Shown here: positions 2,924-53,342 of the stretch, in pieces
Numbering within the stretch: the first letter of the stretch is position 1
Layout of the letters: every line of letters begins with the position of its first letter
Origin: Candidatus Omnitrophota bacterium
Lineage (GTDB): Bacteria > Omnitrophota > Omnitrophia > Omnitrophales > Aquincolibacteriaceae
Length of the DNA stretch: 60,583 nucleotides
Reading direction: 5' to 3'
Assembly: GCA_043732705.1 (NCBI GenBank)
Contig: JAYTHE010000016.1
Coordinates: forward strand, 1-60,583
Notes under the pieces: model-generated
Told to the model about the DNA's origin: nothing
What the model saw: the letters and a program-made list of their open reading frames with translations, nothing else
Database searches by the model: none
Made by a program: the position numbers and the translations under genes

Positions 2924-3437
2924 GCCACGAGGCCCGAGGCCCGGGGCCCGAGTTACGATAAGAAAAAAAGCAGTACGAGTTTCTGATAACCCTCCGGCCT
3001 CCGGCCTCCGGCCTGAGTTGGTTGGAATTGGCATTGACCTTCTCTCATTAAACCGTGCACATGATTTGTTGAGGCGCCATGGCCGCTCATTTCTGGACCG
3101 CATTCTTGCTTCAAGTGAAAAAATCCAAAAACCTGTTTGTTCAGCATTGCAGCTGGCGCGTTATTTCACGGCCAAAGAAGCTTTTTTTAAAGCGTCCGGC
3201 CTGCCATGGAATGATGTAAAAGGTTTTTCGGGAATGTGGATTGAGAAAATCCGCGGCAAGAAATTTGAAATGGGCTGCGTGGATTCCGGCCTTAAAGGTT
3301 CCGGGGAATTTTTTAAGCGCGGTGATATTTGGGGCGCGAAGGTGATTACGTGGAACAGTTTTATTCTGCCTCTGAACCGTCGGTTCAACCGGCGCCGCTC
3401 CGCATCGCGGAGTTTTAAAGTGAGGATTGAGAAATGA
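2910..3437 (+). CDS. acpS: Holo-ACP synthase (AcpS-type PPTase) with repeat-derived termini
   Basis: GIGIDLL and ARYFTAKEAFFKA motifs; start uncertain (ATG 2910 or TTG 3018). Confidence 0.8.
   Translation: MPQRKPRGPRPGARVTIRKKAVRVSDNPPASGLRPELVGIGIDLLSLNRAHDLLRRHGRSFLDRILASSEKIQKPVCSALQLARYFTAKEAFFKASGLPWNDVKGFSGMWIEKIRGKKFEMGCVDSGLKGSGEFFKRGDIWGAKVITWNSFILPLNRRFNRRRSASRSFKVRIEK
2925..3014. repeat. Family E heptamer tracts, inverted pair
   Basis: (GGCCCGA)n at 2925-2952 and (CCTCCGG)3 at 2991-3014. Confidence 0.75.
3369..3392 (+). repeat. Family A hairpin repeat in the acpS 3' end
   Basis: CCTC-TGAACC-GTC-GGTTCA-ACCGG. Confidence 0.85.
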
Positions 3438-3880
3438 GTAATCAAGACTCATTAATCGGCTGGAGAATTTTGTCGGCGATTGATGAAGTGGTTCCTGGAA
3501 AACATGCTAAGGCACGCGCCGAAAATTGGAACTCGGATTACGCACCCGAATTTTTGATGCTGGAGATGATGGCGCAAACGGGCGGTTTGGTAGTCGGAGC
3601 AGTACGGGACTTTTCCGGAAATGTCATTTTTGCGAAAGTGGAGTCAGCTGAGTTTACGGTGTCCGCGCAAGGTGAAATGAAGATAGAAGCTTTTGCGCAT
3701 GACGGTGTTTCTGAGCAGGGTTCATGGATTGAGGCGCATGTTTTGAGCGGAGAACAAAAGATCGCGTCCGCACGCTTTTTTCTGATTGATGCGGGTGATT
3801 TGAGCGGAACCGGAAAGTCACTGACTTTTCATCAAGAGTTTTTGGATTATTATCAAATACGTAAAAAGACTAAAGACTAA
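3434..3880 (+). CDS. FabZ-like protein, degenerate (no catalytic His)
   Basis: IDEV...PEFLMLEMMAQTGG; hot-dog pattern lacking HFP. Confidence 0.7.
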   Translation: MSNQDSLIGWRILSAIDEVVPGKHAKARAENWNSDYAPEFLMLEMMAQTGGLVVGAVRDFSGNVIFAKVESAEFTVSAQGEMKIEAFAHDGVSEQGSWIEAHVLSGEQKIASARFFLIDAGDLSGTGKSLTFHQEFLDYYQIRKKTKD

Positions 3881-3892
3881 AGACCAGAGACT
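3865..3892. repeat. Family E heptamer tract
   Basis: AAAGACT AAAGACT AAAGACC AGAGACT spanning the stop codon and ending at the next ATG. Confidence 0.75.
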
Positions 3893-3893
3893 A

Positions 3894-6364: not shown

Positions 6365-6399
6365 TAAAATTTCTGACCGCGTAGGTCCTAGAGGGTGAA

Positions 6400-7491: not shown

Positions 7492-7494
7492 ATG

Positions 7495-7617: not shown

Positions 7618-7644
7618 TTTTGAAGCGCAGTTATTTTATTTGCA

Positions 7645-7708: not shown

Positions 7709-7787
7709 GCGGTCCGTCCGACCGTGGAGGACAAAAGAGGGGTTAGGGAAACTTCCCATTAAAGCCAGACGGCGACTAAGTCTTAAT

Positions 7788-7809
7788 GCGGTTGGGCGAA
7801 GCCTAGAGC
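7788..7809 (-). repeat. Family A hairpin repeat, minus strand
   Basis: Reverse complement reads GCTC-TAGGC-TTC-GCCCA-ACCGC, just 3' of the minus-strand GT2 gene. Confidence 0.75.
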
Positions 7810-7817
7810 AAAAGATA

Positions 7818-9035
7818 TTACCGCCACTTGGTTTTTTCACCGGTAATTGCCATCTTCATCGCATCCAAGAAAATCAGCGCGAGCGCAAAAGCTCCGACAG
7901 CATGTAGTAAAGAATAAACTTTTTTGGCACGTACCACATGTGCAGCTTCCCAGGCTACGATCAAAATATTGAAGATCACAAGGCCTAATAAAAAGTAAGT
8001 AATAAACCATTCTGTTGAATCTTTATAGGAAAGCCAGGCGACAACGGGGAGTAAAACAAAAGGTAAAACGGAGAAGACAATCAGTTCCAGGGCTTTAAAA
8101 AAGAGAGTTAGCGGCGAACGTTCGAAGCCGTGAAGATAAATTCGGCGCCAGCCCCTGCAGATTTTGTTGAGTCCATCATACATATGTGTCCCATAAAGAT
8201 GGGCGCCCATGGCCACAATGCCGCGTCCGCCCATTTGCTTTGTTTTTTTCATCATCGCGAAGTCTTCCAGAAACGCTTCTTTAACGGATTCATGTCCTCC
8301 GATCATTTGATAATGCGAGCGCTTCATCAGGGCGTATTGGCCGTTCGCGAAGTAACGGTCGGAGTCGGGGTTATTGACTTCTTGCGTCGGAAACCAAAGT
8401 CCGATAAATGAAAAAGAGCAGGTTTGGATGACATGCTCCCAAAAACTTTTGGTGACGCATTGGGGCCAAAGAGTTAAATAATCAATTTGATTTTTTGCGG
8501 CATAGTCCACAGTCACGGTCAAACTTCCGGGGTAATGTTCGGTATCGGCATCCGTAAAAAGCAGCCAGTCTCCGTGCGCGTGCGGGATGGCCTGATGCAA
8601 AGCATAGTTTTTTCCGGTCCAGGCTTCGTTGGTTTGTGTGAGGTTGATATATCGAAGCTGCGCACCGGACGCCGTCCCACGGGGAAGTGTTAGGTTTAAC
8701 GCCTCGTGGGACGGCGTCCGACCAATCAATTCTGCTCCGAGGGCTTGAAGGATGCGCTCTGTTCCATCTGAAGAGCGGTCATTAATTACGATGATCTCGT
8801 CTTTGGGGCCGATTTGTGTCAGAAGGGAACGGACGCATATTCCGATATTTTTTTCTTCATTCCGGGCGGGAATGAGGATGCTGACTGAGGGGTGGTCCTC
8901 CCGGCGCGAATCTTTTGCCGGAAAAAGAGTCGGAGTGCTGATTACGGTATGGACCGCGTGAAAGGTGCGGTAAAGCCAAACTCCCGAGAGAATCAGGACC
9001 GGAATCAAGGACCAATGAAAATGCATGGGGGGCAT
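7818..9035 (-). CDS. Membrane GT2 glycosyltransferase (CrtQ/HpnB-like)
   Basis: SILIPARNEE, DRSSDGT, WTGK, FTDAD, NGQY, LED; TM segments at both ends; start uncertain (9026-9065). Confidence 0.85.
   Translation of the reverse strand: MPPMHFHWSLIPVLILSGVWLYRTFHAVHTVISTPTLFPAKDSRREDHPSVSILIPARNEEKNIGICVRSLLTQIGPKDEIIVINDRSSDGTERILQALGAELIGRTPSHEALNLTLPRGTASGAQLRYINLTQTNEAWTGKNYALHQAIPHAHGDWLLFTDADTEHYPGSLTVTVDYAAKNQIDYLTLWPQCVTKSFWEHVIQTCSFSFIGLWFPTQEVNNPDSDRYFANGQYALMKRSHYQMIGGHESVKEAFLEDFAMMKKTKQMGGRGIVAMGAHLYGTHMYDGLNKICRGWRRIYLHGFERSPLTLFFKALELIVFSVLPFVLLPVVAWLSYKDSTEWFITYFLLGLVIFNILIVAWEAAHVVRAKKVYSLLHAVGAFALALIFLDAMKMAITGEKTKWR
8666..8720. repeat. Palindromic insertion inside the GT2 gene
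   Basis: CGGACGCCGTCCCACG...CGTGGGACGGCGTCCG perfect 16-bp IR. Confidence 0.8.
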
Positions 9036-9145
9036 GATATGAAAAAAAAAGGCAAGGAGCCACAAAAAATGTCGAAAATTGTATAATCAGGTATGCTCAA
9101 CGGGGACGGGGTTGTTTTTATTCTCTTTTTAACCGAAAAGTCATT

Positions 9146-17434: not shown

Positions 17435-19945
17435 ATGTTTGATCGTTTTACAGAACGCGCTCGCAAAGTCATCATTCTTGCCAAGGAAGAAGCCAAACGC
17501 TTTAATCACGATTACATCGGCACGGAGCATATTTTGCTCGGCCTCATTAAAGAAGGCGAAAGTGTCGCTGCCGCGGTTTTACAAAACTTAGGCCTCTCAC
17601 TTGAAACCATCCGCCTCGAAGTTGAAAAGCTGGTGCAATACGGCCCGAGCACCATGGTTTCAGGCGATATTCCCTTTACTCCCAAAGCTAAAAAGGTAAT
17701 TGAACTCGCCATGGATGAAGCCCGTCGTTTGGGACATAACTACATTGGTACCGAGCATTTATTGCTGGGCTTGATCAAAGAAGGCGAAGGCGTTGCCAGT
17801 CACGTGCTTATGAATGTCGGTCTTGATTTGAATAAGGTGCGCGCGGAAGTCATTAAACTTTTAGGATCGGCTTCACCTCAGGGTGAGGGCGCGGAACCGA
17901 ATCCTGCGGTGGGTAATGGCGGCGGCAATTCAGGCGGGGGCAGTGGCGGCGGCGGGAGCGGCGGCAGCAGTAAAGCAAAAACAAAGACTCCGGCGCTTGA
18001 CGCATTTGGACGCGATCTTTCGACTCTCGCGCGCGAAAATAAATTGGATCCCGTCGTTGGGCGCGAAGATGAAATTGAACGCGTGATTCAAATTTTAGCG
18101 CGCCGCACTAAAAACAATCCCGTGCTTCTCGGTGAAGCGGGTGTCGGTAAAACCGCGATTGTCGAAGGTTTGGCGCAGCGTATTTTTTCGGGCGATGTTC
18201 CCGAAATTTTGCAGGATAAACGCATTGTTGTGCTTGATCTCGCACTGATGGTTGCGGGCACGAAATACCGCGGACAATTTGAAGAGCGTATCAAAGCGGT
18301 GATGGATGAAATCCGCCGCAGTGAAAATGTTATGATTTTTATCGACGAAATTCACACGCTTGTCGGCGCCGGCGGAGCGGAAGGCGCAATCGACGCGTCC
18401 AATATTTTGAAGCCTGCGCTCGCGCGTGGTGAGATTCAATGCATCGGTGCGACGACGCTTGATGAATACCGCAAATATATCGAAAAAGACGCCGCGCTTG
18501 CGCGCCGCTTTCAAACGGTTATGGTGGATCCGCCGTCCGTGGATAATGCGATTTTAATTTTAAAAGGTTTGCGCGACAAATATGAAGCGCATCACAAGTT
18601 AAAAATTACCGATCAGGCGATTGAAGCCGCGGTGCGTTTTTCGGACCGTTATATCACCGGCCGTTTTCTTCCGGATAAGGCAATTGACGTGATCGACGAA
18701 GCTTCTTCGCGCGCGCGCCTTTCGGTGACGACTTTGCCGAAGGATCTTAAAAAGCTTGAAACTGAAATCGAAGCCCTGAAGAATGAAAAAGAAGGCGCGA
18801 TCAAAGGCCAGGATTTTGAAAAGGCGGCGCGTTTGCGTGATGAAGAGCGCAAAGCCAAAGAAAGGCTCGCTGGAATCAAGAAGACTTGGAAAGAATCCAA
18901 ATCAGAAATTGAAATCAGCGTATCAGAAGAAGACATTGCTTACGTGGTTTCAAAATGGACCGGGGTTCCGCTAGCGAAACTTGAAGAAAAAGAAACCTCG
19001 CGTTTGTTGAAAATGGAAGATGAACTGCATCGCGGCGTTATCGGACAGCATGAAGCGATTCACGCGATTTCGGACGCTGTGCGCCGCTCGCGCTCAGGTT
19101 TGCGCAATCCCAAACGTCCGATCGGATCTTTTATTTTTCTCGGGCCCACCGGTGTGGGTAAAACGTTGCTTGCGCGTACGCTTGCCGAATTTATGTTTGG
19201 TGATCCGGACGCAACGATTGTCGTGGATTGCTCGGAATACGGCGAAAAATTTAACGTTTCGCGTTTGGTCGGAGCGCCTCCGGGATATGTCGGCTATGAA
19301 GAGGGTGGGCAATTGACCGAAAAAGTACGCCGCCGGCCTTATTCCGTGGTTCTTTTCGATGAAATCGAAAAAGCCCACCCTGATATTTTTAGCCTCTTGC
19401 TGCAGCTGATGGATGAAGGCCGTTTGACTGATTCCTTCGGACGTAAAGTTGATTTTCGCAACACGATTGTGATTATGACTTCGAATGTCGGTGTCGGTAT
19501 GTTGAAGAAGCAGGATTCGATGGGTTTTATTCAAGAGCGCGACGATGTTGATTATGAAAACATGAAAAAGAAACTTCTCGAAGAAACCAAAAAAGTGTTT
19601 CGTCCTGAATTTTTGAATCGCGTGGATGACATCATTGTTTTTCATCCTTTGCGTCGTCAGGATTTGGAACAAATTATTCATATTGAGCTCAAAGAAGTCC
19701 GCGACCGGCTCAAAGATAAAAAAATGGAACTTGTGATGACCGATGAAGTCCTCAAGTTTTTAATCGACGAAGGTTATGACCCCGTTTTTGGTGCGCGGCC
19801 GCTCAAGAGAACCATTCAAAAGTATATTGAGAATGTACTTGCGGAAGATATTCTTTCGGGGAAATTTAAAGACGGCGATAAAATCAGCGCCGAGCTGCAT
19901 GGCGGCCGGATTAATTTTGAAAAAGCAGTCACAAATATTGCCTGA
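17435..19945 (+). CDS. clpC: ATP-dependent Clp protease ATPase ClpC
   Basis: Two Clp-N repeats, [11 protein letters not shown] coiled coil, [12 protein letters not shown] loop. Confidence 0.97.
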
Positions 19946-19953
19946 TATGTTTA

Positions 19954-20013
19954 GCTCCGGGCTTTGCCCAACCGCGAGTTTGCTTTTTCGCTCTGCGCTT
20001 TCTGCGCAACCGC
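19954..20013 (+). repeat. Two tandem Family A repeats
   Basis: GCTC-CGGGC-TTT-GCCCA-ACCGC (19954-19975) and GCTC-TGCGC-TTTCT-GCGCA-ACCGC (19990-20013). Confidence 0.8.
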
Positions 20014-20040
20014 ACGGCGTTCAAAGATAAGGCTAAATAA

Positions 20041-24062: not shown

Positions 24063-25286
24063 ATGCGAGTCAGTCTTATCATCACAGCCGCGGGCGCAAG
24101 CACCCGGTTTGCAAAAACAATTCCCAAAGCCGGCCGTAAAAAAACTGGCTCCAAACTTTTTTTTGAATTGGGCGGCATTCCTGTTTTAGAAAGAACTTTA
24201 CGCGCCTTTTCCAGCATTTCAGAAATCCGTGAAACTTATGTCACGGTTCAGCCTGGTTTTGAACGTGAAGCTTCAGCATGGGGAAATGCGCGCGGTTTCA
24301 AAAAAGTGAAATGGATTGCCGGAGGAAAAACACGCGCTGAATCCGTATTGTTCGCTTTAAAAAAAACATCGTCTAAAAATTCTCATGTGATGGTGCATGA
24401 CGGCGCGCGGCCGTTTGTTGCTCCCGCGGCAGTAAAAAAACTTTTCACAAAAATAAAAAAATATGACGGGATTTTATTGGGCCGCCAAGTCGTGGCCACA
24501 TTGAAAAAAGTTTCGCTATCCGGCGGCAGGGTTGAGGGAACTGTCGACCGTTCCCGGCTCGCAGAAGCAGAAACACCCCAGCTTGTGAAGCGGCAGGTTT
24601 TATTGAATGCTTATCGAAAAGTTCCGGGTGCGCTTTCCTTTACTGACGAATCCAGTCTTGTCGAGGCCGCCGGAGGGAAAATGGGAATTCTTTTGCATGC
24701 GGACTGGAACCCCAAATTGACCCATTATGCGGATTTTGAGCTAGCTGAAGCCCGTGTTCGTTTTGACCTCTGCGCCAAAAGCGCAACCGGTATGGATGCA
24801 GATGCTTCTCGTATGGGAATAGGTTATGATATCCACCGTTTGGTGGCAGGGCGTAAGCTTTGGATCGGCGGAATTAAAATTCCTTTTGAAAAAGGTTCGT
24901 TGGGCCATTCGGACGGTGATGCGCTGCTGCACAGTATTACAGATGCGATTTTAGGTGCAATGGGGCTCGGTGATATCGGCGACTGGTTTTCAGACCGCAA
25001 TCCGAAATATAAAAACATTCAAAGTTCAAAATTACTAGCACAGGTTTTGGAAAGAACAAAAGCATTGGGCTGGAGACCTTCGCAGGTTGATACGAATGTG
25101 ATTTTAGAAAAACCGAAACTCGGGCCGTTGAAAATGAAAATACGGACATCGGTTGCTAAGTTACTAAATTTGCCGCTGACACATGTCTCCGTGAAAGCCA
25201 GGACCTATGAAGGTTTGGCGCCGATAGGAACGGGTGAGGCTTGGGTATCGCAGGCCATTGTTATTATGCAAAAAATAAAGGGGTAA
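24063..25286 (+). CDS. ispDF: Bifunctional IspD/IspF
   Basis: AAGASTRF, HDGARP, ETPQ (IspD); GYDIHRL, GHSDGD, GDIG (IspF). Confidence 0.93.
   Translation: MRVSLIITAAGASTRFAKTIPKAGRKKTGSKLFFELGGIPVLERTLRAFSSISEIRETYVTVQPGFEREASAWGNARGFKKVKWIAGGKTRAESVLFALKKTSSKNSHVMVHDGARPFVAPAAVKKLFTKIKKYDGILLGRQVVATLKKVSLSGGRVEGTVDRSRLAEAETPQLVKRQVLLNAYRKVPGALSFTDESSLVEAAGGKMGILLHADWNPKLTHYADFELAEARVRFDLCAKSATGMDADASRMGIGYDIHRLVAGRKLWIGGIKIPFEKGSLGHSDGDALLHSITDAILGAMGLGDIGDWFSDRNPKYKNIQSSKLLAQVLERTKALGWRPSQVDTNVILEKPKLGPLKMKIRTSVAKLLNLPLTHVSVKARTYEGLAPIGTGEAWVSQAIVIMQKIKG
24767..24790 (+). repeat. Family A repeat in the IspD-IspF linker
   Basis: CCTC-TGCGC-CAAAA-GCGCA-ACCGG. Confidence 0.85.
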
Positions 25287-25291
25287 CATTA

Positions 25292-27348: not shown

Positions 27349-28196
27349 AAAATATTCTTTCCAACAAAACTCAAAAGCTTGCGGCGAAAATTTTAAACAA
27401 ACATGCCGAAACCGGCCGTATTTCGCAGGCGTATTTTTTTACTGGTGAGGAGCTCACTTTTGATCCTGAAACAGAATTCAGCCACAAAGATGATTTTGTT
27501 TTTGATTTTGCGGCTAAGATTGTGGGCGGCAGCGCGTCCGAAGCCGACCGTTTGCGGCGTATTCGGGAAGTCAAGCATCCGGATGTTTTGCGTTTGGGCG
27601 GTGATCCGGAAATGACTTCGGTTAAAATTGCAGAAATGCGCGACTTGCTGAAATGGGTTTCGATGAAACCTTTCGAAGGTGAAAGAAAAGTTGGGATTAT
27701 CTGCCGCGCCGATAAACTCACCGATGAAGCCGCGAACGCGTTTTTAAAAACATTGGAAGAGGCGCCGGGCAATACGGTTTTCTGTCTTTTGGCTCCGTCC
27801 CGCGAATTAGTTTTAGAAACTATCCGTTCAAGATGTTTTGAAGTCCGCTTTCCTGAAGTTCCGGCTTGGAATCCCGCGGCGGCAAGCGCTTTACCGCCAT
27901 TCCGTGAAATGCTTGATAATTATTCCGACTTAACCAAAGCGGAGTTGAAGCCCGCGCTTGATCAGGCTTTGGAAAATATCCGCGAGCGTCTTGCTTCGGC
28001 TTCGCGGTCATATTTTGCTTCTGGGTCTTCGCCCCAACCAGCGAGAGTCCATCATCCTGTAGATTATTTACGCGCATTCGAAACCATTTGCGAGGCGAAG
28101 TCGGCGCTTGAAGCAAACGCCAATGCCAAATTGACTGTGACGCGCATGGTCATGAAATTGCGCCATTATTTTTCGGGCGAGAGAGGCATTGTGTGA
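27345..28196 (+). CDS. holB: DNA polymerase III delta' subunit
   Basis: HPDV, AANAFLKTLEE, TIRSRC; follows tmk. Confidence 0.85.
   Translation: MKNILSNKTQKLAAKILNKHAETGRISQAYFFTGEELTFDPETEFSHKDDFVFDFAAKIVGGSASEADRLRRIREVKHPDVLRLGGDPEMTSVKIAEMRDLLKWVSMKPFEGERKVGIICRADKLTDEAANAFLKTLEEAPGNTVFCLLAPSRELVLETIRSRCFEVRFPEVPAWNPAAASALPPFREMLDNYSDLTKAELKPALDQALENIRERLASASRSYFASGSSPQPARVHHPVDYLRAFETICEAKSALEANANAKLTVTRMVMKLRHYFSGERGIV
28018..28041 (+). repeat. Family A repeat in holB
   Basis: CTTC-TGGGT-CTTCG-CCCCA-ACCAG, encodes ASGSSPQPA. Confidence 0.75.
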
Positions 28197-28385: not shown

Positions 28386-29963
28386 AAAACTTACATTACA
28401 ACTCCGCTCTACTATGTCAATGCAAAACCGCATATCGGACATGCCTATACCAACGTGCTTTGCGATACTTTTGCGCGTTTTTTTCGAATTCATGATGGCA
28501 AGGAAAATGTTTTCTTTTTGACGGGTACAGATGAACACGGTACAAAAATTCAAAAGGCTGCGGAAGCACAGGGTAAAACTCCTAAAGTGTATGTGGATGA
28601 AGTGGTTCCGCTTTTTCAACATTTATGGACAGCACCGCTTTTAGATATTACTTATGATCGTTTTATCCGCACGACGGACGAAGACCATAAACGGATTGTT
28701 CAGAAAATCCTGCGTGATCTCGAAACTAAAGGCGACATCTATAAAGAAAAATACAAAGGCTGGTACTCCGTTCAGGACGAAAGTTTTTATACGGATACGC
28801 AGCTGCGCGAAGGCCTGCCGGAAGAAATTCAAAATACTTTGCAGGAAATCGAAGAAGAAAATTATTTCTTTAAGATGTCGAAGTATCAGCAGCCGTTGAT
28901 TGATTATATCAATTCGCATCCTGATTGGATCCAACCGGAGATGCGCCGTAACGAAATGCTGGGCTTTCTCAATAATCACACACTTGAAGACCTTTGTATT
29001 ACGCGTCCGCGCAAACGTCTGGAATGGGGTATTGATTATCCTGGTTCGTCGGATCACGTTGTTTACGTTTGGTTTGATGCGTTGATTAATTATGTCAGCG
29101 CGATCGGTTACGGAGAGGACGATAAGAAGTTCAAACAATGGTGGCCCGCGGTGCATGTGATCGGAAAAGATATTTTGCGCCAGCATGCCGTATTTTGGCC
29201 GATTATGTTGATGGCCATGGGCGTGGAAATGCCGAAGAAAATTTTAGCGCATGGCTGGTGGCGTATGGGCGGAGCAAAAATGTCCAAGTCGCTCGGTAAT
29301 GTCGTCGATCCGCTGGATATGATTACGAAATACGGCGCGGATGCCTTCCGCTTTTTTCTTTTACGTGAGGCGACTATGGGCTCCGACGGATCTTTTTCCG
29401 AAGAGCTCCTGCGCGAACGTTATGGTAGTGACTTGGCAAACGGTTTGGGAAATCTTTGGCACCGTTATGCATCGATGCTTGAAAAATACTTTGGCGGGAA
29501 AGTTCCGGAAGGCGAGCCGGATTGGAATATTCCGGTGTTGAGCAAGTCGGTTCAATTAGAAAAAACCGTGACGGAGTTGATGCGTGACTATAATCCCAAA
29601 GATGCATTGATTCATATTTTTGACGTGGTGACTTTGGCGAATCAATTTGTGGAAGAACGGAAGCCCTGGTCGTTGGCCAAAGATCCTGCTCAACTTATTT
29701 CTGCCTCTGGGTCTGCGGCTCAACCGGCGAAGCCAACCACCTTAGCGGAAACAATGATAGTTCTCACGGAAGTTTTAGCGCGCGTGGGATTTGTTTTACA
29801 GCCATTCTTGACGCGAACCGCGCCCAAGATTTTGACGCGCATGCATATCGCGCCAACCGTTCAAAGTGTTTCTGCTTCCAAGCGAGTCGTCAAACCCAAC
29901 GAGCCGGTTGAAAAGGGCGAACCGCTTTTCCCGCGCCTCGAAGATGAAACTCCAAAACCCTAA
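28377..29963 (+). CDS. metG: Methionine--tRNA ligase (short form)
   Basis: YITTPLYY, HIGH, YVWFDAL, KMSKS. Confidence 0.96.
   Translation: MAAKTYITTPLYYVNAKPHIGHAYTNVLCDTFARFFRIHDGKENVFFLTGTDEHGTKIQKAAEAQGKTPKVYVDEVVPLFQHLWTAPLLDITYDRFIRTTDEDHKRIVQKILRDLETKGDIYKEKYKGWYSVQDESFYTDTQLREGLPEEIQNTLQEIEEENYFFKMSKYQQPLIDYINSHPDWIQPEMRRNEMLGFLNNHTLEDLCITRPRKRLEWGIDYPGSSDHVVYVWFDALINYVSAIGYGEDDKKFKQWWPAVHVIGKDILRQHAVFWPIMLMAMGVEMPKKILAHGWWRMGGAKMSKSLGNVVDPLDMITKYGADAFRFFLLREATMGSDGSFSEELLRERYGSDLANGLGNLWHRYASMLEKYFGGKVPEGEPDWNIPVLSKSVQLEKTVTELMRDYNPKDALIHIFDVVTLANQFVEERKPWSLAKDPAQLISASGSAAQPAKPTTLAETMIVLTEVLARVGFVLQPFLTRTAPKILTRMHIAPTVQSVSASKRVVKPNEPVEKGEPLFPRLEDETPKP
29704..29727 (+). repeat. Family A repeat in metG
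   Basis: CCTC-TGGGTC-TGC-GGCTCA-ACCGG, encodes ASGSAAQPA. Confidence 0.85.
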
Positions 29964-33963: not shown

Positions 33964-33984
33964 CTGGTTGAGCTTGCTCAGAAG
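33964..33984 (-). repeat. Family A repeat, minus strand
   Basis: Reverse complement reads CTTC-TGAGC-AA-GCTCA-ACCAG; lies between two minus-strand genes. Confidence 0.7.
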
Positions 33985-34000
33985 CAAAAAGTAACGACAG

Positions 34001-37252: not shown

Positions 37253-39934
37253 ATGTCGATACCTGAACTCAACCTGGACCTCACTTCTACTCCCAAGCTG
37301 ACTCCGATGATGGAACAGTATCGTTCCATCAAAAAAACTTTGCCGTCAGCGACCATTCTTTTCTTCCGTCTTGGAGATTTCTATGAAATGTTTTTCGACG
37401 ATGCCGTTCAGGGCGCGGAAATTCTCAATATTACTTTGACCGGGCGTGAAGCCGGCGCCGCGGGACGGATTCCGATGTGCGGTTTCCCTTATCATGCTTT
37501 TTCAGGCTATGTCCGGCTTTTACTCGATAAAAATTTAAAAGTTGCCGTTTGCGAGCAAGTGGGCGAACCATCCAAAACTAAAGGTCTGATGGAAAGAAAA
37601 GTCACTAGGTTGATTACCCCCGCGACTTATTTGGATGATGAGAATGCGTCCCGCACTTCCGAATACTTGGCGGCGGTGATCCGTAAATCAGGCGAAGCGG
37701 CCATTGCTTATCTTGAATTGGGAACGGGTGACTTTTGGGTGCGCCGCGTCAGCGAAGACCGGTTGCTCGATGAATTGGCATTGATCCATCCACGCGAAGT
37801 GATTCTGCCCAAAAGCCTTGCCGAAGGTGCCGTGAACGATTTCGCCAAAGAATGGCTGCATGCGGCTGTCAGTGTTTATGAGGATTGGATTTTTGAAACG
37901 TCCGAATCCGCCGACCGTTTGAAGCAAGTGTTTCATTTAAGCGGCGCGCAATCTTTGAGTTTTCATGATGATGCTTTGGCGGTCGGAGCTTGCGGCGCCG
38001 TACTTTATTATTTGCATGATCATTTTCATCACGCTTTGGGGCATGTACGTATACCAAAAATAATTCAAGCGCATGCCTGTATGATTCTGGACCGTCAGGC
38101 GCAGAAAAGTTTGGAGCTGGTTGCGAATGAACAGGGCCGCAAAGGCCTCGGAACTTTATTTCGTGTTCTGGATGAAACTTTGACTTCAATGGGAACGCGC
38201 CAACTGGAAGAATGGATTCTCCGTCCTTTGGTGCAAGTTAAAGATATTCACGCGCGGCAGGAATCAATTAAAGAACTGGTACAAAACCGCATGTCATCTG
38301 AAACGCTTATGACTTTGCTTTCCGGAATCCGCGATATGGAGCGTACGCTCAGCCGCTTGAATTCCGGCGTGGCGAATGCGCGTGATCTCGTGAATCTAAA
38401 AAACTTTCTCAACCGCATTCCTGATTTAAGAACTGAACTGAGCCGCCTCGCGAGCGACCTGCTGCTTGATTTTTCCAAGAAGATTCAGCCTTTTCCGGCT
38501 TTGTGCCAAATGATTGATTCTGCGATTGTTTCTGAGCCTCCTTTGACCGTGCGCGAAGGCAGCATGATTCGCGAAAAGTATTCTGCAGAACTGGATGAAT
38601 ACCGGCATCTTTCCCAAAATGGCAAGCAATGGATATTGGATTTCCAACAGCGCGAAATTGAACGCACCGGTATTAAATCGCTGAAAGTGAAGTATTCTCA
38701 AGTTTTTGGTTATGGAATTGAAATCAGCAAGAATAACTTAAACGCCGTTCCCGACAATTATATCCGTCGCCAAACTTTGGCGAACGCGGAAAGATTTGTT
38801 TTGCCTGAATTGACCGAGTGGGACCAGAAGATTTCCGGCGCTCAGGACAAAATGAAAGTCATGGAGTATGAGATTTTTAACCAGATTCGCGGCCGTGTTT
38901 TAGAACAGCTCACGCCTTTGCAGGAAATGGCGCGCGCGGTGGGTTCGCTGGATGCCTTGCTTGCGCTTGCCCGCGTAGCGAATCAAAAACAATGGGTGTG
39001 CCCCGAAGTCACGGAAGGCGATGTGATTCATATTGAGGCCGGCCGCCATCCGGTTGTCGAAAACATGCTACCGCTCGGTAAGTTTGTTGAAAACGATTTA
39101 TTGCTCAATCAAAAAGATCATCAGTTGATTATTTTGACGGGACCGAACATGGCGGGTAAATCGACTTATATCCGCCAAACCGCTTTGATTGTACTTCTCG
39201 CGCAAATCGGCAGTTTTGTTCCCGCAAAAGCATGCCGTGTGGGAGTCGTCGACCGTATTTTTACCCGCATCGGCGCCTCGGATGATTTGGCGCGCGGTGA
39301 AAGTACCTTTATGGTTGAAATGCTTGAAACTTCGCGGATTTTAAATGAAGCCACTTCACGCAGCTTATTGATATTAGATGAAGTCGGTCGCGGAACTTCT
39401 ACGTTTGATGGGCTGAGCATCGCTTGGGCGATCTGTGAACGTTTAGCCTCTGGAGTGTCTAATTTTTCCTCTGCGCCGAAGGCGCAACCGGGCGTAAAGC
39501 CACGCACGCTTTTTGCGACGCATTATCATGAGTTGACCCAATTAGAAGGGCATTTCCCTTCGATTTGCAATTACACGATGAAAGTCAAAGAAACATCGGA
39601 TGAAGTTCTGTTTCTCCGTAAAGTGATTCGCGGTGCAAGTGACCGCAGTTACGGTATTCATGTCGCGCAGCTTGCCGGACTTCCTGCGGCGGTGACAACT
39701 CGTGCCAAAGAAATTCTGAAAGTGCTTGAAACTGAAAACAAGGAAGCAACGCAGATTTTAGAAGGCGGGCGACCGGCGATTAATTCTTCCTCCGTGCCTT
39801 CGGCACAACCGGTAGAACATCCTCTTGTTGGTGAGTTAAAGGAACTCGATATCAATTCTATGACACCCATTCAGGCTTTACAGAAGTTAGAAGAGTTTAA
39901 ATCTCGGGCCTCGGTTCTTCGGTCTCGGGACTAG
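37253..39934 (+). CDS. mutS: DNA mismatch repair protein MutS
   Basis: TPMMEQY, GDFYEMF, TGPNMAGKST, DEVGRGT, ATHYHEL, SYGIHVA. Confidence 0.97.
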   Translation: MSIPELNLDLTSTPKLTPMMEQYRSIKKTLPSATILFFRLGDFYEMFFDDAVQGAEILNITLTGREAGAAGRIPMCGFPYHAFSGYVRLLLDKNLKVAVCEQVGEPSKTKGLMERKVTRLITPATYLDDENASRTSEYLAAVIRKSGEAAIAYLELGTGDFWVRRVSEDRLLDELALIHPREVILPKSLAEGAVNDFAKEWLHAAVSVYEDWIFETSESADRLKQVFHLSGAQSLSFHDDALAVGACGAVLYYLHDHFHHALGHVRIPKIIQAHACMILDRQAQKSLELVANEQGRKGLGTLFRVLDETLTSMGTRQLEEWILRPLVQVKDIHARQESIKELVQNRMSSETLMTLLSGIRDMERTLSRLNSGVANARDLVNLKNFLNRIPDLRTELSRLASDLLLDFSKKIQPFPALCQMIDSAIVSEPPLTVREGSMIREKYSAELDEYRHLSQNGKQWILDFQQREIERTGIKSLKVKYSQVFGYGIEISKNNLNAVPDNYIRRQTLANAERFVLPELTEWDQKISGAQDKMKVMEYEIFNQIRGRVLEQLTPLQEMARAVGSLDALLALARVANQKQWVCPEVTEGDVIHIEAGRHPVVENMLPLGKFVENDLLLNQKDHQLIILTGPNMAGKSTYIRQTALIVLLAQIGSFVPAKACRVGVVDRIFTRIGASDDLARGESTFMVEMLETSRILNEATSRSLLILDEVGRGTSTFDGLSIAWAICERLASGVSNFSSAPKAQPGVKPRTLFATHYHELTQLEGHFPSICNYTMKVKETSDEVLFLRKVIRGASDRSYGIHVAQLAGLPAAVTTRAKEILKVLETENKEATQILEGGRPAINSSSVPSAQPVEHPLVGELKELDINSMTPIQALQKLEEFKSRASVLRSRD
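39468..39491 (+). repeat. Family A repeat in the MutS ATPase domain
   Basis: CCTC-TGCGCC-GAA-GGCGCA-ACCGG, encodes SSAPKAQPG. Confidence 0.85.
39789..39812 (+). repeat. Family A repeat in the MutS C-terminal linker
   Basis: CCTC-CGTGCC-TTC-GGCACA-ACCGG, encodes SSVPSAQPV. Confidence 0.85.
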
Positions 39935-39938
39935 TTTT

Positions 39939-41774
39939 ATGGTTAATAAAATTCAAATTCTTTCCGAACGCATTGCCAACAAAATTGCCGCGGGTGAAGT
40001 TGTCGAAAGGCCCGCTTCGATTGTTAAAGAGCTTCTGGAAAATTCGATCGATGCCGGCGCGACTTTAATCGAAGTGACCGTTCATCACGGCGGAAAAAGT
40101 TTAATCAGCATTTCCGATAACGGCAGCGGGATGTCGCCGCAGGACGCGGAACTCGCGTTTAAACGGCACGCGACCAGCAAAATTAAATCGGATGATGATT
40201 TGGCTCACATTGCTTCATTCGGCTTTCGCGGAGAAGCTTTGCCGAGTATTGCGGCGGTTTCACGCATGACACTCGTCACCAAGCCGCATGACTCTGAAAC
40301 GGGAACCGAAATTTGGATGGTCGGCGGAGCGCTTGCCAAGGCTCGTGAAGCGGCGGCTTCACCAGGGACAACAGTAGAAGTGCGCGATTTATTTTTCAAT
40401 ACGCCCGCCCGCAGAAAATTTTTGAAGCAGGACTCCACCGAATTCGGACACATTCACGAAGTTTTGGCCTCGGCCGCGCTTGCAAACCCAAAAATCCATT
40501 TTGTTTTCAAAAATCAGGAGAAAACTATTTGGGATCTACCTTCTTTAGCCTCTGAGCCTTCAGCTCAACCGGCGGGTAGTCATTACCGCGAACGTGTCAA
40601 AGCAGTTTTAGGCGGGGATTGGGGCGACATGCTGATTCCTATTGAAGCGCAGATTCCGCATGTGAAAGTTTCCGGTTTTATTACGAAGCCGGAATTCGCG
40701 CGCGGCAACCGTCTCACGCAATATATTTATGTGAATCAGCGCTGGGTTAAATCTTTCGCAGTTCAATATGCGGTTGATGCCGGTTACCACGGATTTTTAA
40801 TGCATGGCCGTTATCCCGCCGTCATTTTATTCGTGGATGTTCATCCGCAATACGTGGACGTGAATGTTCATCCCACGAAACAGCAAGTACGGCTTTCAGG
40901 CGAAACTTCGATTAAGTCAATGATTCAAAATGCCATTGCCGCGTCTTTGCGCAATGCGCCTGATCTGAGGCCTGCTTTGGCGGATAAACCCGCGTCCATA
41001 TTTAAAGCGGGTACGGAAGCTTTTTTTGCATCCCGCTCGGATACCCTCGAAAAAGATAAACAACCCGATTCTGATTTTACGGCCGCTCCGGTTTCGCAAT
41101 GGGAAACCGCGCTTCAGGAAACTGCCGCGTCATTTTCGAGCGTGAAAGAGCCAGAATTGCCGGATTGGAAGCCTGTTACTTCTGACCGGCCGGTGATTAC
41201 GAAAGTATTGGGGCAAGTTCATGGAACTTTTATTTTGGCTGAGACCGAAGAAGGGTATGTCGTGATTGATCAGCATGCCGCGCATGAAAAAATTCAATTT
41301 GAAAGTCTGCGTCAAAATCTTGAAAAAGCGAGCCCAGTTTCACAGCGGCTTCTGATCGAAGAAATGTTGGAGCTCAATCCGCGCCATTTTGCGGTGTATG
41401 AGGAATACGCGGAGTTTCTGAGAAAGATCGGGTTTGACATGGAATTATTCGGCGACAAAACGCTGCTGATCCGCTCGGTGCCGAATGCATTTCGCAATGA
41501 AAATCCAAAACAAGTTTTAACTTCTTATTTTGAGCAGAAAGAAACCGGCGAAGCGGGAGTCAGGCTCGAGCATTATCAGGCTGATTTGGCGGCCATGCTT
41601 GCCTGCAAAACACGCTCCGTAAAAGCGCATGATTCGCTCAATATGGAAGAGATGCGGAAACTGACCGATGAGCTGATGCGCTGCGAGCATCCTTTTCATT
41701 GTCCTCATGGCCGTCCCTCCATGCTTAAATATTCGTTCGCTGAGCTTGAGCGCCAATTCAAACGTAAACTCTGA
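39939..41774 (+). CDS. mutL: DNA mismatch repair protein MutL
   Basis: IAAGEVVERP, GFRGEAL, DQHAAHE, CPHGRP. Confidence 0.97.
   Translation: MVNKIQILSERIANKIAAGEVVERPASIVKELLENSIDAGATLIEVTVHHGGKSLISISDNGSGMSPQDAELAFKRHATSKIKSDDDLAHIASFGFRGEALPSIAAVSRMTLVTKPHDSETGTEIWMVGGALAKAREAAASPGTTVEVRDLFFNTPARRKFLKQDSTEFGHIHEVLASAALANPKIHFVFKNQEKTIWDLPSLASEPSAQPAGSHYRERVKAVLGGDWGDMLIPIEAQIPHVKVSGFITKPEFARGNRLTQYIYVNQRWVKSFAVQYAVDAGYHGFLMHGRYPAVILFVDVHPQYVDVNVHPTKQQVRLSGETSIKSMIQNAIAASLRNAPDLRPALADKPASIFKAGTEAFFASRSDTLEKDKQPDSDFTAAPVSQWETALQETAASFSSVKEPELPDWKPVTSDRPVITKVLGQVHGTFILAETEEGYVVIDQHAAHEKIQFESLRQNLEKASPVSQRLLIEEMLELNPRHFAVYEEYAEFLRKIGFDMELFGDKTLLIRSVPNAFRNENPKQVLTSYFEQKETGEAGVRLEHYQADLAAMLACKTRSVKAHDSLNMEEMRKLTDELMRCEHPFHCPHGRPSMLKYSFAELERQFKRKL
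40549..40572 (+). repeat. Family A repeat in mutL
   Basis: CCTC-TGAGC-CTTCA-GCTCA-ACCGG, encodes ASEPSAQPA. Confidence 0.85.
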
Positions 41775-43442: not shown

Positions 43443-43514
43443 AGTGCTAAGGCTGGCCTGAATCGCGATGGCGGCAAAAAGAAATTATAAAAAAAGATTT
43501 AAAAGGAGAAGCTA

Positions 43515-44189: not shown

Positions 44190-44209
44190 AATGCTGACCG
44201 TTTTATTTG

Positions 44210-44233
44210 CCTCTGGGCTTTCAGCCCAACCGG
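44210..44233 (+). repeat. Family A repeat, intergenic
   Basis: CCTC-TGGGC-TTTCA-GCCCA-ACCGG. Confidence 0.85.
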
Positions 44234-49804: not shown

Positions 49805-49806
49805 AA

Positions 49807-49986: not shown

Positions 49987-50001
49987 GGTTTTGACGGCCC
50001 G

Positions 50002-50478: not shown

Positions 50479-53342
50479 AATTGGAAGATCTCTTTTCCGG
50501 AATTGAAACGCTGGAACGGTCGGCATGGGATGGAAGTCAAAATATTCCGAGAGTTTTAAAGGATTCCCGTGCGATTCAAAAAGGGGATGTTTTTGTAGCC
50601 TGCCGCGGAGCCAATCAGGACGGACATGACTTTATTGCGGATGTCGCGAAGCGCGGCGCCGTTGTGATTATCTATGAAAAAGAGGGCAGCCCCATTCCTC
50701 AATCCGTCACCGGAATACGCGTCAAAGACACCCAACTTTTATTTCCGGAGCTTCTTAAGCGTATGTACCGGTTTAACGATCATTCCATTTCAATTTTGGG
50801 CGTCACCGGCACGAACGGAAAAACGACGATTACCCAGCTTTTATACCGGTTACTTTCGACGCGATTCAAAGCAGGAACCATTGGAACTTTATCTTACGCC
50901 TTGCCTTCCGGAATTCGTGAGTCAGACAATACAACACCCGGTCCTGAAACCTTGATCCCGCTGCTCGCAGAAATGGTTTCGCAGGGGGCGAAATATGTTT
51001 CGATGGAAGTTTCATCGCATGCCTTAGAACAGCGGCGTGTGGCGGGTCTTCATTTTGAATTGGCGATTTTTACGCAATTGACGCAGGATCATTTAGATTA
51101 CCATCATGATCTGGAGTCTTACTTTCAAGCCAAGCGCCGGCTCTTTTCCGAATATAAACCGGAACGGATGCTGATTAACCGTGATTGTCCTTATGGCCGC
51201 CGTTTACTCGCGGAATTTCCGCAGGCTAAATCTTTTAGCGTTGAAAGCGCGGCAGATTATCAAGCGGTTCAAATTCAAGAGTCGCTGCGCGGCTGCCGTT
51301 TTGGAATTAAATTTCGCAGAAAAACAGAGAATTTTGAAATCCAACTGCCGCTTCATTATAATATTTCGAATTGTTTAGCGGTTTTGGCCGGGTTAGATTT
51401 GCTCGGATTGAATATGCTTGATTTTGCCGCGCCGCTTTCCAAAATTCCTTTTATTCCCGGCCGTATGGAAAGAGTGCCGCATGATTCCGCTCATATTTTT
51501 GTTGATTACGCGCATACGCCCGATGCTTTTTTACAGGTGCTCAAACATGTCCGCATGCAAAAGCCGGGGAAAATTATTACGGTTTTCGGCTGCGGGGGTG
51601 ACCGTGACCGCGGTAAGCGTCCGAAGATGACGCGCGTGGCGGCTGATTTTTCAGATGTGCTGGTGCTTACGTCAGATAACCCGCGGACAGAAGATCCAAA
51701 AGCAATTTTGGAAGAAATGAAAACTGCATTGACGGAAAATGACCGCGCGAAGATTCAAATTATTGAAGATCTTGACCGTGCCGAAGCGATTCGCAAAGCT
51801 TTAAAACTTGCTGAAGCGGGCGACGCTCTCCTGATTCTTGGCAAAGGACATGAAGATTACCAAATCATCGGCAAGGAAAAACATCATTTCAGCGACCGCG
51901 AAGTGGTTTTAGAGGCACTGTCTTATTCTGGCTCTGGGCTTCGCTCAATCGCCGCTTCTGATTCTTTCGCTCAATTGAATTGTCCTCCGCATTCTGCTGT
52001 TCAGTCACCAGCTATCACGCCTTTTTCGATTGATACGCGGACGTTGAAGCCCGGCGACCTCTTTGTCGCATTGGATGGTGCGAATCAAAAAGGGCAGGCT
52101 TTTTTGGCGGAAGCCTTCATGCGCGGGGCCGCAGCCGCGATTTGCGCGGCCAAGTACCAAGCTAAAGTTCAAATGGATTTGCCGGCGGCAGAATTGAAAA
52201 AAGTTTATTTCACGGAAGATCCCGCCGCGGCGATGGCAGCTTTGGCGCGCGCGCATCGCGACCGGTTCGCGATTGAGGCCGTGGGTATTACGGGTAGCGT
52301 TGGAAAAACATCGACCAAAGAATTCCTTTCTTATTTGTTAAGCCGCAAATTTAATTTACTCGCCACGCAGGGCAACCTCAACAATCATCTCGGTTTGCCG
52401 ATCAGTTTAAGCCGTTTAAATGCTCAACATCAGGTTGGCGTGTTTGAAATGGGGGCTAATCACGCCGGTGATATTGCTGAGCTTGTCAAAATTCTTAATC
52501 CCACGCGCGGCATTTTGGTGCCGATCGGTCCCGCGCATTTAGCGGGTTTTGGAAGCTTGGAGAATATCTACGATGCCAAACTCGAAATATTACAGGCGCC
52601 CGGCATGAAAACTCTTGTGACGGTAGATGATGATCCCGCGCTTGAGAAACGGCTTCAAAAAACAAAGATGAAAATAATCCGGGTTGGTTTTTCGGAAAAA
52701 GCGGATATTTGTATTTCACAACTGCGGTTATTGGATTCCGGGATGGAATTCAAATTAAACGGACACCTTATTAAGATTCCGATGCGCGCGCCTTTTCTGG
52801 CGGTGAATGCGGCGCTCGCGGCCGCAATGGCTTTAGAGCTGGGCGTTGCTTGGAGCGATGTCGAGGGATCTTGGGATGTGGTTTTTCCCGCGGGCCGTTT
52901 TCTCGAGCGTCAGCTGGGAAACGGGGTGACTGTGATTGACGACACCTATAACGCATCACCGCGGTCAGTACAAGCCGCAATCAAAACGCTAGGACAGTTG
53001 TCCTTGGGACGCAGAGGTTGGCTTATTTTTTCGGATATGCTTGAATTGGGTAATGAATCTGAGAAATTGCACCGGGATTTGGCGGGCGCAGCCGAAGAAT
53101 CCCAATTATTCGGAGTTTGGGCTTTCGGAGAGCAGGCTCGATTCTTAATCGACGAGTTAAACCGCCGGAAAAGCCCGGTGAATGCAAGATGGTTTGAGAA
53201 TTGTGTGGATTTAGCCGATAATCTCACAGCTGAGCTTAAAAAGAATGACTTGGTTTTGCTGAAAGGCTCCCGTGGAATGCGTGTGGAACGCGTCCTTGCG
53301 GCCTTGGACAAAAATATTTTAAATCAATCCGAGAACGTTTGA
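50475..53342 (+). CDS. murEF: Fused MurE-MurF ligase
   Basis: MurE: GVTGTNGKTT, MEVSSH, DYAHTPD, DNPR, GKGHE; MurF: GITGSVGKTS, NNHLG, EMG, DDTYNASP, KGSRG. Confidence 0.93.
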   Translation: MKLEDLFSGIETLERSAWDGSQNIPRVLKDSRAIQKGDVFVACRGANQDGHDFIADVAKRGAVVIIYEKEGSPIPQSVTGIRVKDTQLLFPELLKRMYRFNDHSISILGVTGTNGKTTITQLLYRLLSTRFKAGTIGTLSYALPSGIRESDNTTPGPETLIPLLAEMVSQGAKYVSMEVSSHALEQRRVAGLHFELAIFTQLTQDHLDYHHDLESYFQAKRRLFSEYKPERMLINRDCPYGRRLLAEFPQAKSFSVESAADYQAVQIQESLRGCRFGIKFRRKTENFEIQLPLHYNISNCLAVLAGLDLLGLNMLDFAAPLSKIPFIPGRMERVPHDSAHIFVDYAHTPDAFLQVLKHVRMQKPGKIITVFGCGGDRDRGKRPKMTRVAADFSDVLVLTSDNPRTEDPKAILEEMKTALTENDRAKIQIIEDLDRAEAIRKALKLAEAGDALLILGKGHEDYQIIGKEKHHFSDREVVLEALSYSGSGLRSIAASDSFAQLNCPPHSAVQSPAITPFSIDTRTLKPGDLFVALDGANQKGQAFLAEAFMRGAAAAICAAKYQAKVQMDLPAAELKKVYFTEDPAAAMAALARAHRDRFAIEAVGITGSVGKTSTKEFLSYLLSRKFNLLATQGNLNNHLGLPISLSRLNAQHQVGVFEMGANHAGDIAELVKILNPTRGILVPIGPAHLAGFGSLENIYDAKLEILQAPGMKTLVTVDDDPALEKRLQKTKMKIIRVGFSEKADICISQLRLLDSGMEFKLNGHLIKIPMRAPFLAVNAALAAAMALELGVAWSDVEGSWDVVFPAGRFLERQLGNGVTVIDDTYNASPRSVQAAIKTLGQLSLGRRGWLIFSDMLELGNESEKLHRDLAGAAEESQLFGVWAFGEQARFLIDELNRRKSPVNARWFENCVDLADNLTAELKKNDLVLLKGSRGMRVERVLAALDKNILNQSENV
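51931..51978 (+). repeat. Family A repeat plus a degenerate second copy at the MurE-MurF junction
   Basis: GCTC-TGGGC-TTC-GCTCA-ATCGC then CTTC-TGATT-CTTTC-GCTCA-ATTGA. Confidence 0.65.

Follow-up and report, generated by a model that had tools for sequence, protein, structure and literature searches.

What is a hairpin of some two dozen nucleotides (nt) that recurs thirteen times in one bacterial contig, in several cases inside genes for housekeeping proteins, and how does it come to be there? The contig is JAYTHE010000016.1 of a Candidatus Omnitrophota bacterium (GenBank assembly GCA_043732705.1), and the hairpin is referred to here as Family A. The window is the whole stretch analysed, 60,583 nt, which is contig C16 of an assembly of 2.17 Mb in 45 contigs, a metagenome-assembled genome (MAG) that is 90.67% complete. 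This source genome, G000, and four congeners, G001-G004, make up the genus sample, in which completeness is 88-94%. A first-pass annotation, made from the letters of the window alone, had described a 21-24-nt covarying hairpin that colonizes essential coding sequences, always in the sense orientation. The present analysis supports a strand-polar hairpin element that is constrained at the nucleic-acid level, and revises its extent, placement and orientation. We read Family A as a new family resembling repetitive extragenic palindromic (REP) elements, which is untagged, mostly singleton and polar with respect to transcription, and which stands outside the system of REPs and REP-associated tyrosine transposases (RAYTs).

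Family A is a covarying hairpin confined to one genus

All 13 copies listed by the first-pass annotation were confirmed at their coordinates. The covariance model R1 separates 12 of the 13, and the copy at 19954 overlaps the hit at 19975-20017. The strict pattern CTCTGNGC-N2-6-GCNCAACCG matches the window five times, compared to 0 matches in 100 dinucleotide-preserving shuffles. Across G000, a scan for the exact flanks (CTCTG, 7-14 nt, CAACCG) without any pairing requirement yields 228 sites versus 0 in the reversed genome. When pairing is required and flank mismatches are tolerated, 200, 76 and 194 sites are found at 0, 1 and 2 mismatches, against 0, 9 and 134 in the reversed control. Setting the pairing-scan counts against this control puts the real copy number in G000 at roughly 230-330. 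The 200 sites without mismatch are the strict copies used below for placement counts. A search of the whole window with Rfam 15 gave 0 matches at the gathering score.

The covariation proposed earlier exceeds that of shuffled controls. In the alignment of the 13 window copies (A1), evaluated on an eight-pair structure with 500 column shuffles, standard pairs occupy 93.3% of the cells versus 75.4% after shuffling, and both sides are changed in 17 cells versus 4.8 expected; the covariation score is reached by 0 of 500 shuffles. Sliding the 3' partners by 1-3 columns cuts the pairing to 24-37%. The outermost closing pair, formed by the bases just preceding CTC and just following ACCG, is C-G in nine copies and G-C in four, and the second closing pair, inward of it, is C-G in 11 and U-A in two. 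The core can be written as N-C-TC-TG-N-G-C-(triloop)-G-C-N'-CA-ACC-G-N' and is 22-24 nt long, with a 5-6-bp stem containing one freely varying pair, a fixed internal loop of asymmetric make-up (TC opposite ACC), and 2-3 closing pairs that covary. Its fixed flanks are (G/C)CTCTG and CAACCG(C/G), which on the opposite strand give CGGTTG and CAGAG. The core is preceded by a conserved T-rich leader of ~13 nt, roughly C-N-G/T-T-T-W-W-W-T-T-T-T-G in the upstream logo, and tandem copies typically have a core-to-core spacing of 12-17 nt. The unit is therefore ~36-38 nt. The stem first described stands, while its extent of 21-24 nt does not, since the covarying closing pairs and the ~13-nt leader make a unit of ~36 nt.

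The larger set of 228 exact-flank copies shows the same anatomy, with all three inner variable pairs Watson-Crick in 185 and the first closing pair Watson-Crick in 202. The free pair is C-G in 92, A-T in 55, G-C in 45 and T-A in 20. The mean folding energy of the core is -7.1 kcal/mol versus -3.9 for shuffled cores. It should be mentioned that the closing pairs are missing from the minimum-energy structure in 200 of 200 copies despite covarying, which fits a motif that is read by a protein. Doublets number 35 among 276 copies (20 tandem, 13 convergent and 2 divergent).

An intrinsic terminator was considered and rejected. The hairpin is preceded, not followed, by the T tract on the sense strand, and on the other strand what follows it is an A tract; a mean stem energy of only -7.1 kcal/mol also opposes this assignment.

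Family A is limited to one genus. With at most 150 candidates scored per genome, R1 matches were obtained in all five genomes of the genus and in 0 of 26 that belong to other genera within this family and order. The strict pattern is found 139 times in G000, 158 times in G001, 33 times in G002, 62 times in G003 and 51 times in G004. Among the other 396 of the 401 phylum genomes sampled, four have one match each and the remainder none.

The window copies and insertion into coding sequences

The 13 copies in the window, with the evidence for each, are as follows.

3356..3392, + strand: copy in the 3' tail of an acpS-like open reading frame (ORF), core CCTCTGAACC..GGTTCAACCGG plus leader (R1, 44.4 bits)
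7788..7822, - strand: copy 1 nt past the stop of a glycosyltransferase gene (7818-9065, -) (R1, 33.5 bits)
19941..19975, + strand: copy 1 of a tandem pair that immediately follows the clpB stop (sequence match)
19976..20013, + strand: copy 2 of the clpB tandem pair (R1, 42.6 bits)
24754..24790, + strand: in-frame copy in the IspD-IspF linker, reading DLCAKSATG (orthologue comparison)
28005..28041, + strand: in-frame copy in holB, second closing pair T-A, not C-G (R1, 46.9 bits)
29691..29727, + strand: in-frame copy in metG, reading ISASGSAAQPA (39-nt insertion relative to orthologues)
33964..33997, - strand: copy between divergent genes, upstream of the minus-strand gene 33205-33903 (R1)
39455..39491, + strand: in-frame copy in the MutS ATPase domain (mutS-a), reading VSNFSSAPKAQP (orthologue alignment)
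39776..39812, + strand: in-frame copy in the MutS C-terminal linker (mutS-b) (orthologue comparison)
40536..40572, + strand: in-frame copy in mutL, reading ASEPSAQPA (orthologue comparison)
44197..44233, + strand: copy ~8 nt past the stop of a response-regulator gene (R1, 47.3 bits)
51918..51952, + strand: copy opening the 31-aa MurE-MurF linker (NCBIfam, R1)

The host genes named by the first-pass annotation agree with NCBIfam (AcpS-like, IspDF, HolB, MetG, MutS, MutL, MurE/MurF), and the acpS-like copy is located in the C-terminal tail of the ORF, past the AcpS domain. Both minus-strand copies adjoin minus-strand genes, as had been observed, and all three reading frames are indeed in use in the window.

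The claim that these copies are lineage-specific insertions, which add loops to housekeeping proteins, is upheld by orthologue comparison at metG, mutS-a, mutL, holB and ispDF. Against 12 orthologues, the closest of which is 63% identical, the mutS-a copy stands out as a clean insertion of 12 residues, and within the genus it is present only in G000 and G001, as is the holB copy. The metG copy is found only in G000, the 39-nt insertion being missing in G002, G003 and G004. The mutL copy is present in G000 and G001 and missing in G002, G003 and G004; the ispDF copy is present in G000, G001 and G004 and missing in G002 and G003. The congeners thus differ in the presence or absence of the element at five coding sites. 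Copies have been gained and lost between species of the genus, which indicates that Family A is, or recently was, mobile. The mutS-b site holds copies in four genomes (G000, G001, G003 and G004), with three different, perfectly paired stems. Among the non-coding sites, that at 33964 has copies also in G001 and G003, where the G003 stem is different yet paired, and the copy at 44197 is kept in G003 and G004. At 7788 the G001 sequence is shorter by ~25 nt, and the clpB 3' site has one copy in G001 versus two in G000. For MutS, the closest named relatives come from MAGs with the label Verrucomicrobia or Lentisphaeria and are 46% identical, and one other MAG reaches 63%.

Genome-wide, the 55 sense copies in coding sequence fall into the three frames as 42, 9 and 4, with the main frame reading ...S-A-S-x-x-x-A-Q-P-A.... 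Many coding copies in another frame or in antisense lie within 5% of the ORF end, where the gene calls are unreliable. About one fifth of the copies are in-frame in linkers or loops of housekeeping proteins, with nearly all of these read in the same frame. A 24-nt core is present in 39 of the 55 coding sense copies versus 38 of 125 intergenic copies. Together with a 12-nt leader this core makes 36 nt, and its enrichment in coding sequence is the signature of a multiple-of-three length filter. In codon alignments the inserts are 24-39 nt long, T-rich leader included. All 20 further host genes tested (20/20) encode conserved housekeeping proteins, among them GltX, Dxs, RibF, IF-2, BamA, IleRS, NuoL, an AddA/UvrD-like helicase, Alr, an E2 acyltransferase and acetyl-CoA synthetase, and the insertions are often placed between Pfam domains. 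Judged by these alignments, the copies in coding sequence were inserted in frame, in some lineages only. Avoidance of stop codons was tried as an explanation for the biased frame and orientation of copies in coding sequence and found insufficient, as 56-79% of intergenic units are open in a given sense frame and 47-70% in a given antisense frame.

Several further features were seen around the window sites. G001 lacks ~93 nt from the end of the acpS-like ORF (window 3340-3434), and there the two genes abut; the lacking segment comprises the Family A copy, a hairpin of terminator-like appearance (CTCCGC..GCGGAG, then TTTT) and, for the next gene, a new ribosome-binding region. After clpB, the G003 equivalent of 19945-20041 has a long GC-rich terminator-type hairpin instead of Family A. 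In G000, murE and murF form one 955-aa ORF (window junction 51918-52010), and the Family A copy begins the 31-residue linker; in G003 (C6:39570-39700) the two genes are separate, in different frames, overlapping by ATGA and without the linker. In this comparison, the Family A insertion is associated with the murE/murF gene fusion. Copies also occur in G001 at sites that are vacant in the window, namely an antisense copy before the response-regulator gene (equivalent to ~43442-43515) and a tandem pair at the 5' end of ispDF (equivalent to ~24109-24138). Both G001 and G002 have a copy inside the gene 25241-26722 (equivalent to ~26287-26354), which is likewise vacant in the window.

Placement after stop codons and orientation with transcription

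Intergenic DNA is only ~10% of the genome, yet 125 of the 200 strict copies (62%) are intergenic; 66 are inside a called coding sequence (CDS), 55 in sense and 11 in antisense, and nine lie over a gene edge. Family A is therefore not mainly a colonizer of essential coding sequences, as had been supposed from the window. Nor is it always in sense, with 42 antisense among the 181 copies of assignable orientation. Between co-directional genes, intergenic copies are 80 sense versus 26 antisense, and seven of the 125 intergenic copies are between divergent genes.

The sense intergenic copies lie close to the upstream gene. The median distance from stop to core is 18.5 nt, compared to 54 nt from the core to the next start, and 40 of the 80 begin ≤17 nt from the upstream stop versus 12% expected under uniform placement in the same spacers. 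The sign test gives 60:20 (p = 9e-6). Given the ~13-nt leader, the stop codon is usually in or at the leader of these copies. There is no clear preference for a type of stop codon, with TAA 29, TGA 17 and TAG 5 beside copies versus 813, 501 and 241 genome-wide.

Between 86 and 90% of called genes in G000 match the sign of the local GC skew. As a result of this strong gene-strand bias, nearly all window genes are on the + strand, and the directions of transcription and replication are confounded. The genes that run against the bias allow them to be told apart. Intergenic copies beside lagging-strand genes are 7 sense:2 antisense and those beside leading-strand genes 63:18; seven of nine in sense, across five loci, has p = 0.0006 under a replication model, in which 22% would be in sense. 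Among discordant copies of all classes, 14 match the gene strand and one matches the skew. These counts indicate that the orientation follows transcription and not replication, with the caveats that the numbers are small, the inference is skew-based, and small recent inversions may have moved gene and element together. The link between strand and neighbouring genes seen in the window thus extends to the genome scan, in which orientation tracks transcription on the GC-skew-based measure.

Stem changes at orthologous sites

The stems were compared at orthologous sites in ~1.0 Mb of G003, with element sites bridged through their flanks. In this way 64 of 201 G000 copies and 29 of 41 G003 copies were bridged, and for 16 of the 64 an intact copy on the same strand is present in the G003 interval. 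A possibly younger age of the antisense copies in intergenic regions was examined through sharing with G003, which is 8 of 24 for sense versus 1 of 8 for antisense (Fisher p = 0.39). From 20 orthologous pairs, 17 non-redundant ones were retained, three rows having been dropped for tandem-versus-single ambiguity and one mispaired neighbour.

At five of these 17 sites the two genomes have the same free stem pair; at the other 12 both of its bases differ, yet they still pair. The 85 pair comparisons taken together comprise 56 without any change, 23 with both bases exchanged and pairing preserved, 5 with a single base exchanged and pairing preserved, and 1 in which pairing is lost. Transversion pairs without a wobble intermediate make up many of the double exchanges. 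It should be mentioned that the orthologous pairs were chosen for an intact copy in both genomes, so the conservation is overstated. The G000/G003 stem pattern, as it appears in these alignments, fits three histories alike, namely a hairpin kept under lasting constraint, copies repeatedly replaced or re-inserted at one and the same place, and templated correction from arm to arm or copy to copy.

One orthologous pair, G000:C6:18146 and G003:C1:147006, is the only one with an identical core. This copy is located directly after a conserved GC-rich stretch that by eye is like the 3' end of a tRNA-like gene.

A probable mobile hairpin filtered by selection

Considering the abundance and structure of the repeat, the confinement to one genus, the turnover between congeners, the length and frame preferences in coding sequence, the polarity with transcription, the closeness to stop codons, the housekeeping hosts and the likeness to published REP behaviour, we think it probable, with moderate confidence, that Family A is a REP-like, genus-confined, non-autonomous mobile hairpin, which is read in single-stranded form by some factor and whose surviving copies have been filtered by selection. 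In the mechanism that we envisage, a trans-acting protein would recognize the asymmetric hairpin in a single strand, and this strand would be the transcript or else the non-template strand of the DNA. Newly made copies would then be sifted by selection. Intergenic survivors would be transcribed as a post-stop-codon or intercistronic stem-loop, where REPs act on mRNA, and intragenic survivors would be those of 3n length, read as a loop rich in Ser, Ala, Gln and Pro.

A number of results weigh against this reading. No mobilizing enzyme was found. The RAYT-like genes of the genus, described below, neither flank Family A nor match its distribution. Filled and empty sites, at an identity between genomes of 65-84%, gave no exact ends, target site or target duplication; the CCGC seemingly shared at site 7788 and the GCTCAA at metG are not repeated at other sites. 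Near-identical strains were also sought in metagenome contigs for insertion polymorphism, and the best MutS relative was 46% identical. The identity of the free pair at five of 17 orthologous sites is not above the 28% expected for unrelated copies, and the leaders are weakly conserved (48% identity in orthologous versus 37% in non-orthologous pairs), with a few nearly identical, e.g. 15/16 at C45:5692. Taken together, the non-matching free pairs and the weak conservation of the leaders make inheritance with compensation, re-insertion and gene conversion equally compatible with the data. G-T mismatches are not in excess over A-C in the exact-flank copies (18 versus 16), which gives nothing specific to a fold at the RNA level. 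Singletons account for 197 of 276 copies (71%), unlike typical families of REPs or of REPINs (hairpin-forming doublets of REPs), and neither a GTAG nor a CGTC tag was found on Family A. The placement counts depend on a crude codon-usage ORF picker, weakest at 5' ends, which called 1577 genes covering 90% of the genome, and the direction of replication was taken solely from the GC skew of a MAG in 45 contigs, 90.67% complete.

The alternative that survives best takes Family A to be, in the first place, a cis-acting mRNA signal under host selection. The U-rich leader and the hairpin at stop codons would be bound by an RNA-binding protein or ribonuclease specific to the genus, which would set mRNA decay, processing or translational coupling, with mobility being secondary. 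The sense bias that tracks transcription and the clustering at stop codons speak for such a signal, as does the covariation of closing pairs that have no thermodynamic support. The same is true of the compensated stems, with 23 of 85 comparisons changed on both sides and paired and only one unpaired at the 17 G000/G003 sites, which include the coding site mutS-b, although these pairs were ascertained through an intact copy in both genomes. Against such a signal stand a set of carrier genes that differs between congeners, a copy number that varies up to 5-fold (33-158), coding copies in unrelated housekeeping proteins, and 26 of 106 intergenic copies between co-directional genes in antisense; there is also no asymmetry of G-U over A-C. 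We consider this alternative rather unlikely.

Another proposal, which we hold to be unlikely as well, is that Family A is a RAYT-independent, transcription-coupled hairpin. Either a putative enzyme would insert or exchange it on the non-template strand or the transcript near stop codons, or it would be a genus-specific, protein-bound mRNA tag; in both cases the hairpin would be actively maintained, even in CDSs. The argument for active maintenance is that the stem changes at orthologous sites are fully compensated, transversion pairs included.

The first-pass annotation had suggested a substrate of an HUH/RAYT-like enzyme or of a reverse transcriptase (RT), or else a protein-binding mRNA tag. 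Two RAYT-like genes of the Y1/HUH type are present in G000, both with intact HUH and Tyr motifs and both below the NCBIfam NF047646 cut-off of 80 bits.

C26:58289-58876 of G000: RAYT-like gene, C26 type (NF047646, 78.8 bits)
C27:24150-24821 of G000: RAYT-like gene, C27 type (NF047646, 55.9 bits)

Family A could be a classical REP, moved in trans by one of the RAYT-like HUH Y1 transposases of the genome acting on single-stranded DNA. IS200/IS605 and RAYT enzymes generally read substrates of this type, asymmetric hairpins between fixed flanks. The C27 type is found only in G000 (one gene) and G001 (two paralogues), which are the two copy-richest genomes (139 and 158 copies versus 33-62), but this correlation comes from a single lineage. 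No Family A copy was detected within 1.5 kb of either G000 gene at E ≤ 0.1 with filters off (best E 0.11), or within 1.5 kb of the RAYT-like genes in G001, G002 and G003. Each of the G000 genes is instead bracketed by its own unrelated inverted repeats of 31-55 nt, present essentially twice genome-wide. A PF01797 match was obtained in 24 of 31 related genomes, the majority of them without Family A, whereas G004, with 51 strict copies, has no PF01797 match at 94% completeness. The GTAG tag is also missing. A RAYT or TnpA gene flanked by the motif was therefore not obtained, and we regard movement by either RAYT-like enzyme of the genome as quite improbable. A link to a reverse transcriptase was rejected, with 0 matches to PF00078 in G000 and a match in one of the four congeners, in genomes that are 88-94% complete.

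At the RAYT-like loci themselves (C27:24089-24851 and C26:58223-58914), the gene's own repeats are 35-nt hairpin arms and a 31-nt terminal inverted repeat. The RAYT-like paralogues of G001 have different flanking hairpins, one of them containing GTAG. Giant ORFs of 4000-7500 aa were seen in G000 at C26:45431-57883, at C27:11811-23945 and on C25 (7556 aa), two of which directly adjoin the RAYT-like genes; the end of the window, 56891-60583, is inside a long open-ended ORF.

The polarity of Family A might also arise from insertion into the lagging-strand template at replication, as in IS200/IS605, its transcriptional appearance then being due to the co-orientation of genes. The two explanations are largely confounded, with 86-90% of genes matching the sign of the GC skew, and the sense strand of co-oriented genes is the lagging-strand template. 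The copies that can separate them go with the gene, both in the 7:2 ratio beside lagging-strand genes (five loci, p = 0.0006) and in the 14 discordant copies to one. The minus-strand gene beside the copy at 33964 is collinear in G003, subject to the caveat of small recent inversions. We find an origin of the polarity in replication very improbable. A DNA uptake signal or a favoured peptide-coding word, built by point mutation and not inserted, would account for a genus-specific, abundant sequence with a preferred frame inside genes, but can be dismissed as having next to no likelihood against clean 24-39-nt insertions relative to orthologues, 62% non-coding copies, a covarying stem and a strong polarity to transcription.

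Comparison to known repeat families

Family A was compared to repeat families described previously. In the accessible part of Di Nocera et al. (2013, PMC3733652), REPs are mostly intergenic, between unidirectional or convergent ORFs, and usually <20 bp away from where the upstream ORF ends, and they sometimes supply the stop codon of that ORF. Intragenic REPs are described there in several species, notably in genes for replication, repair and tRNA synthetases, and intragenic GTAG copies are reported to be most numerous in the verrucomicrobium Opitutus terrae; the CGTC REPs are said there to have no dedicated transposase. The contrast first drawn with REPs as mainly extragenic elements was therefore overstated, as intragenic REPs and REPs abutting stop codons are already on record in that part of the paper (PMC3733652). 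Family A resembles them as an imperfect palindrome of 20-40 nt with a short conserved asymmetric end, present in hundreds of copies, restricted to a species or genus, mainly extragenic and near the 3' end of the upstream ORF, with some in-frame intragenic copies. It differs in having the fixed CTCTG and CAACCG in place of a GTAG or CGTC tag, in its T-rich 5' leader, in being 71% singletons with tandem doublets outnumbering inverted ones, and in flanking no RAYT gene. Family A is also sense-polar to transcription, and no such polarity is reported for REPs in the accessible text of PMC3733652.

According to the available text of Bertels and Rainey (2011, PMC3116915), the replicative unit of REPINs is the inverted doublet, and singlets are seen as decayed remnants; a high frequency of repeats in RAYT flanks is named a core feature in that of Bertels et al. 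(2017, PMC5581495). Like the elements in these excerpts, Family A consists of short palindromic repeats that are thought to be non-autonomous and recognized as single-stranded hairpins, in a genome with RAYT-like Y1 genes. The differences are that the singlets of Family A dominate and are intact, and that the RAYT-like flanks hold their own two-copy repeats and not the abundant Family A.

The in-frame palindromic insertions into conserved protein genes have a looser likeness in the Rickettsia palindromic elements (RPEs), which PMC3733652 also mentions. These elements (RPE-1, ~100-150 nt) are palindromic and lie in-frame in conserved genes, adding tolerated peptide segments. Family A, compared to them by description only, is ~36 nt, mostly intergenic and from an unrelated lineage. 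Elhai and co-workers are said to have described, in Genome Research in 2008, cyanobacterial small dispersed repeats (SDRs) as dispersed hairpins of 21-27 nt with compensatory stem changes, thought to be recently mobile. These are likewise a looser likeness, sharing with Family A the form of very small dispersed hairpin repeats with compensatory changes; their sequence and host phylum are unrelated. REPs near stop codons have reportedly been connected to trans-translation by Liang and co-workers in 2015.

Implications

The lineage-specific indels that Family A accounts for are of practical value in annotation, and the element warns against spurious short ORFs and frame extensions in its neighbourhood. 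It also shows protein remodelling, in which loops of 10-13 residues are added to MutS, MutL, MetG, HolB, IleRS, IF-2, BamA and others. How REP-type repeats spread, and whether the host benefits from them, are open questions. Family A may be an easier test case for them than REPs or bacterial interspersed mosaic elements (BIMEs), with its mostly single units, its polarity to transcription, its sharp preference for the few nucleotides that come first after stop codons, its many in-frame copies and its lack of a cognate RAYT.

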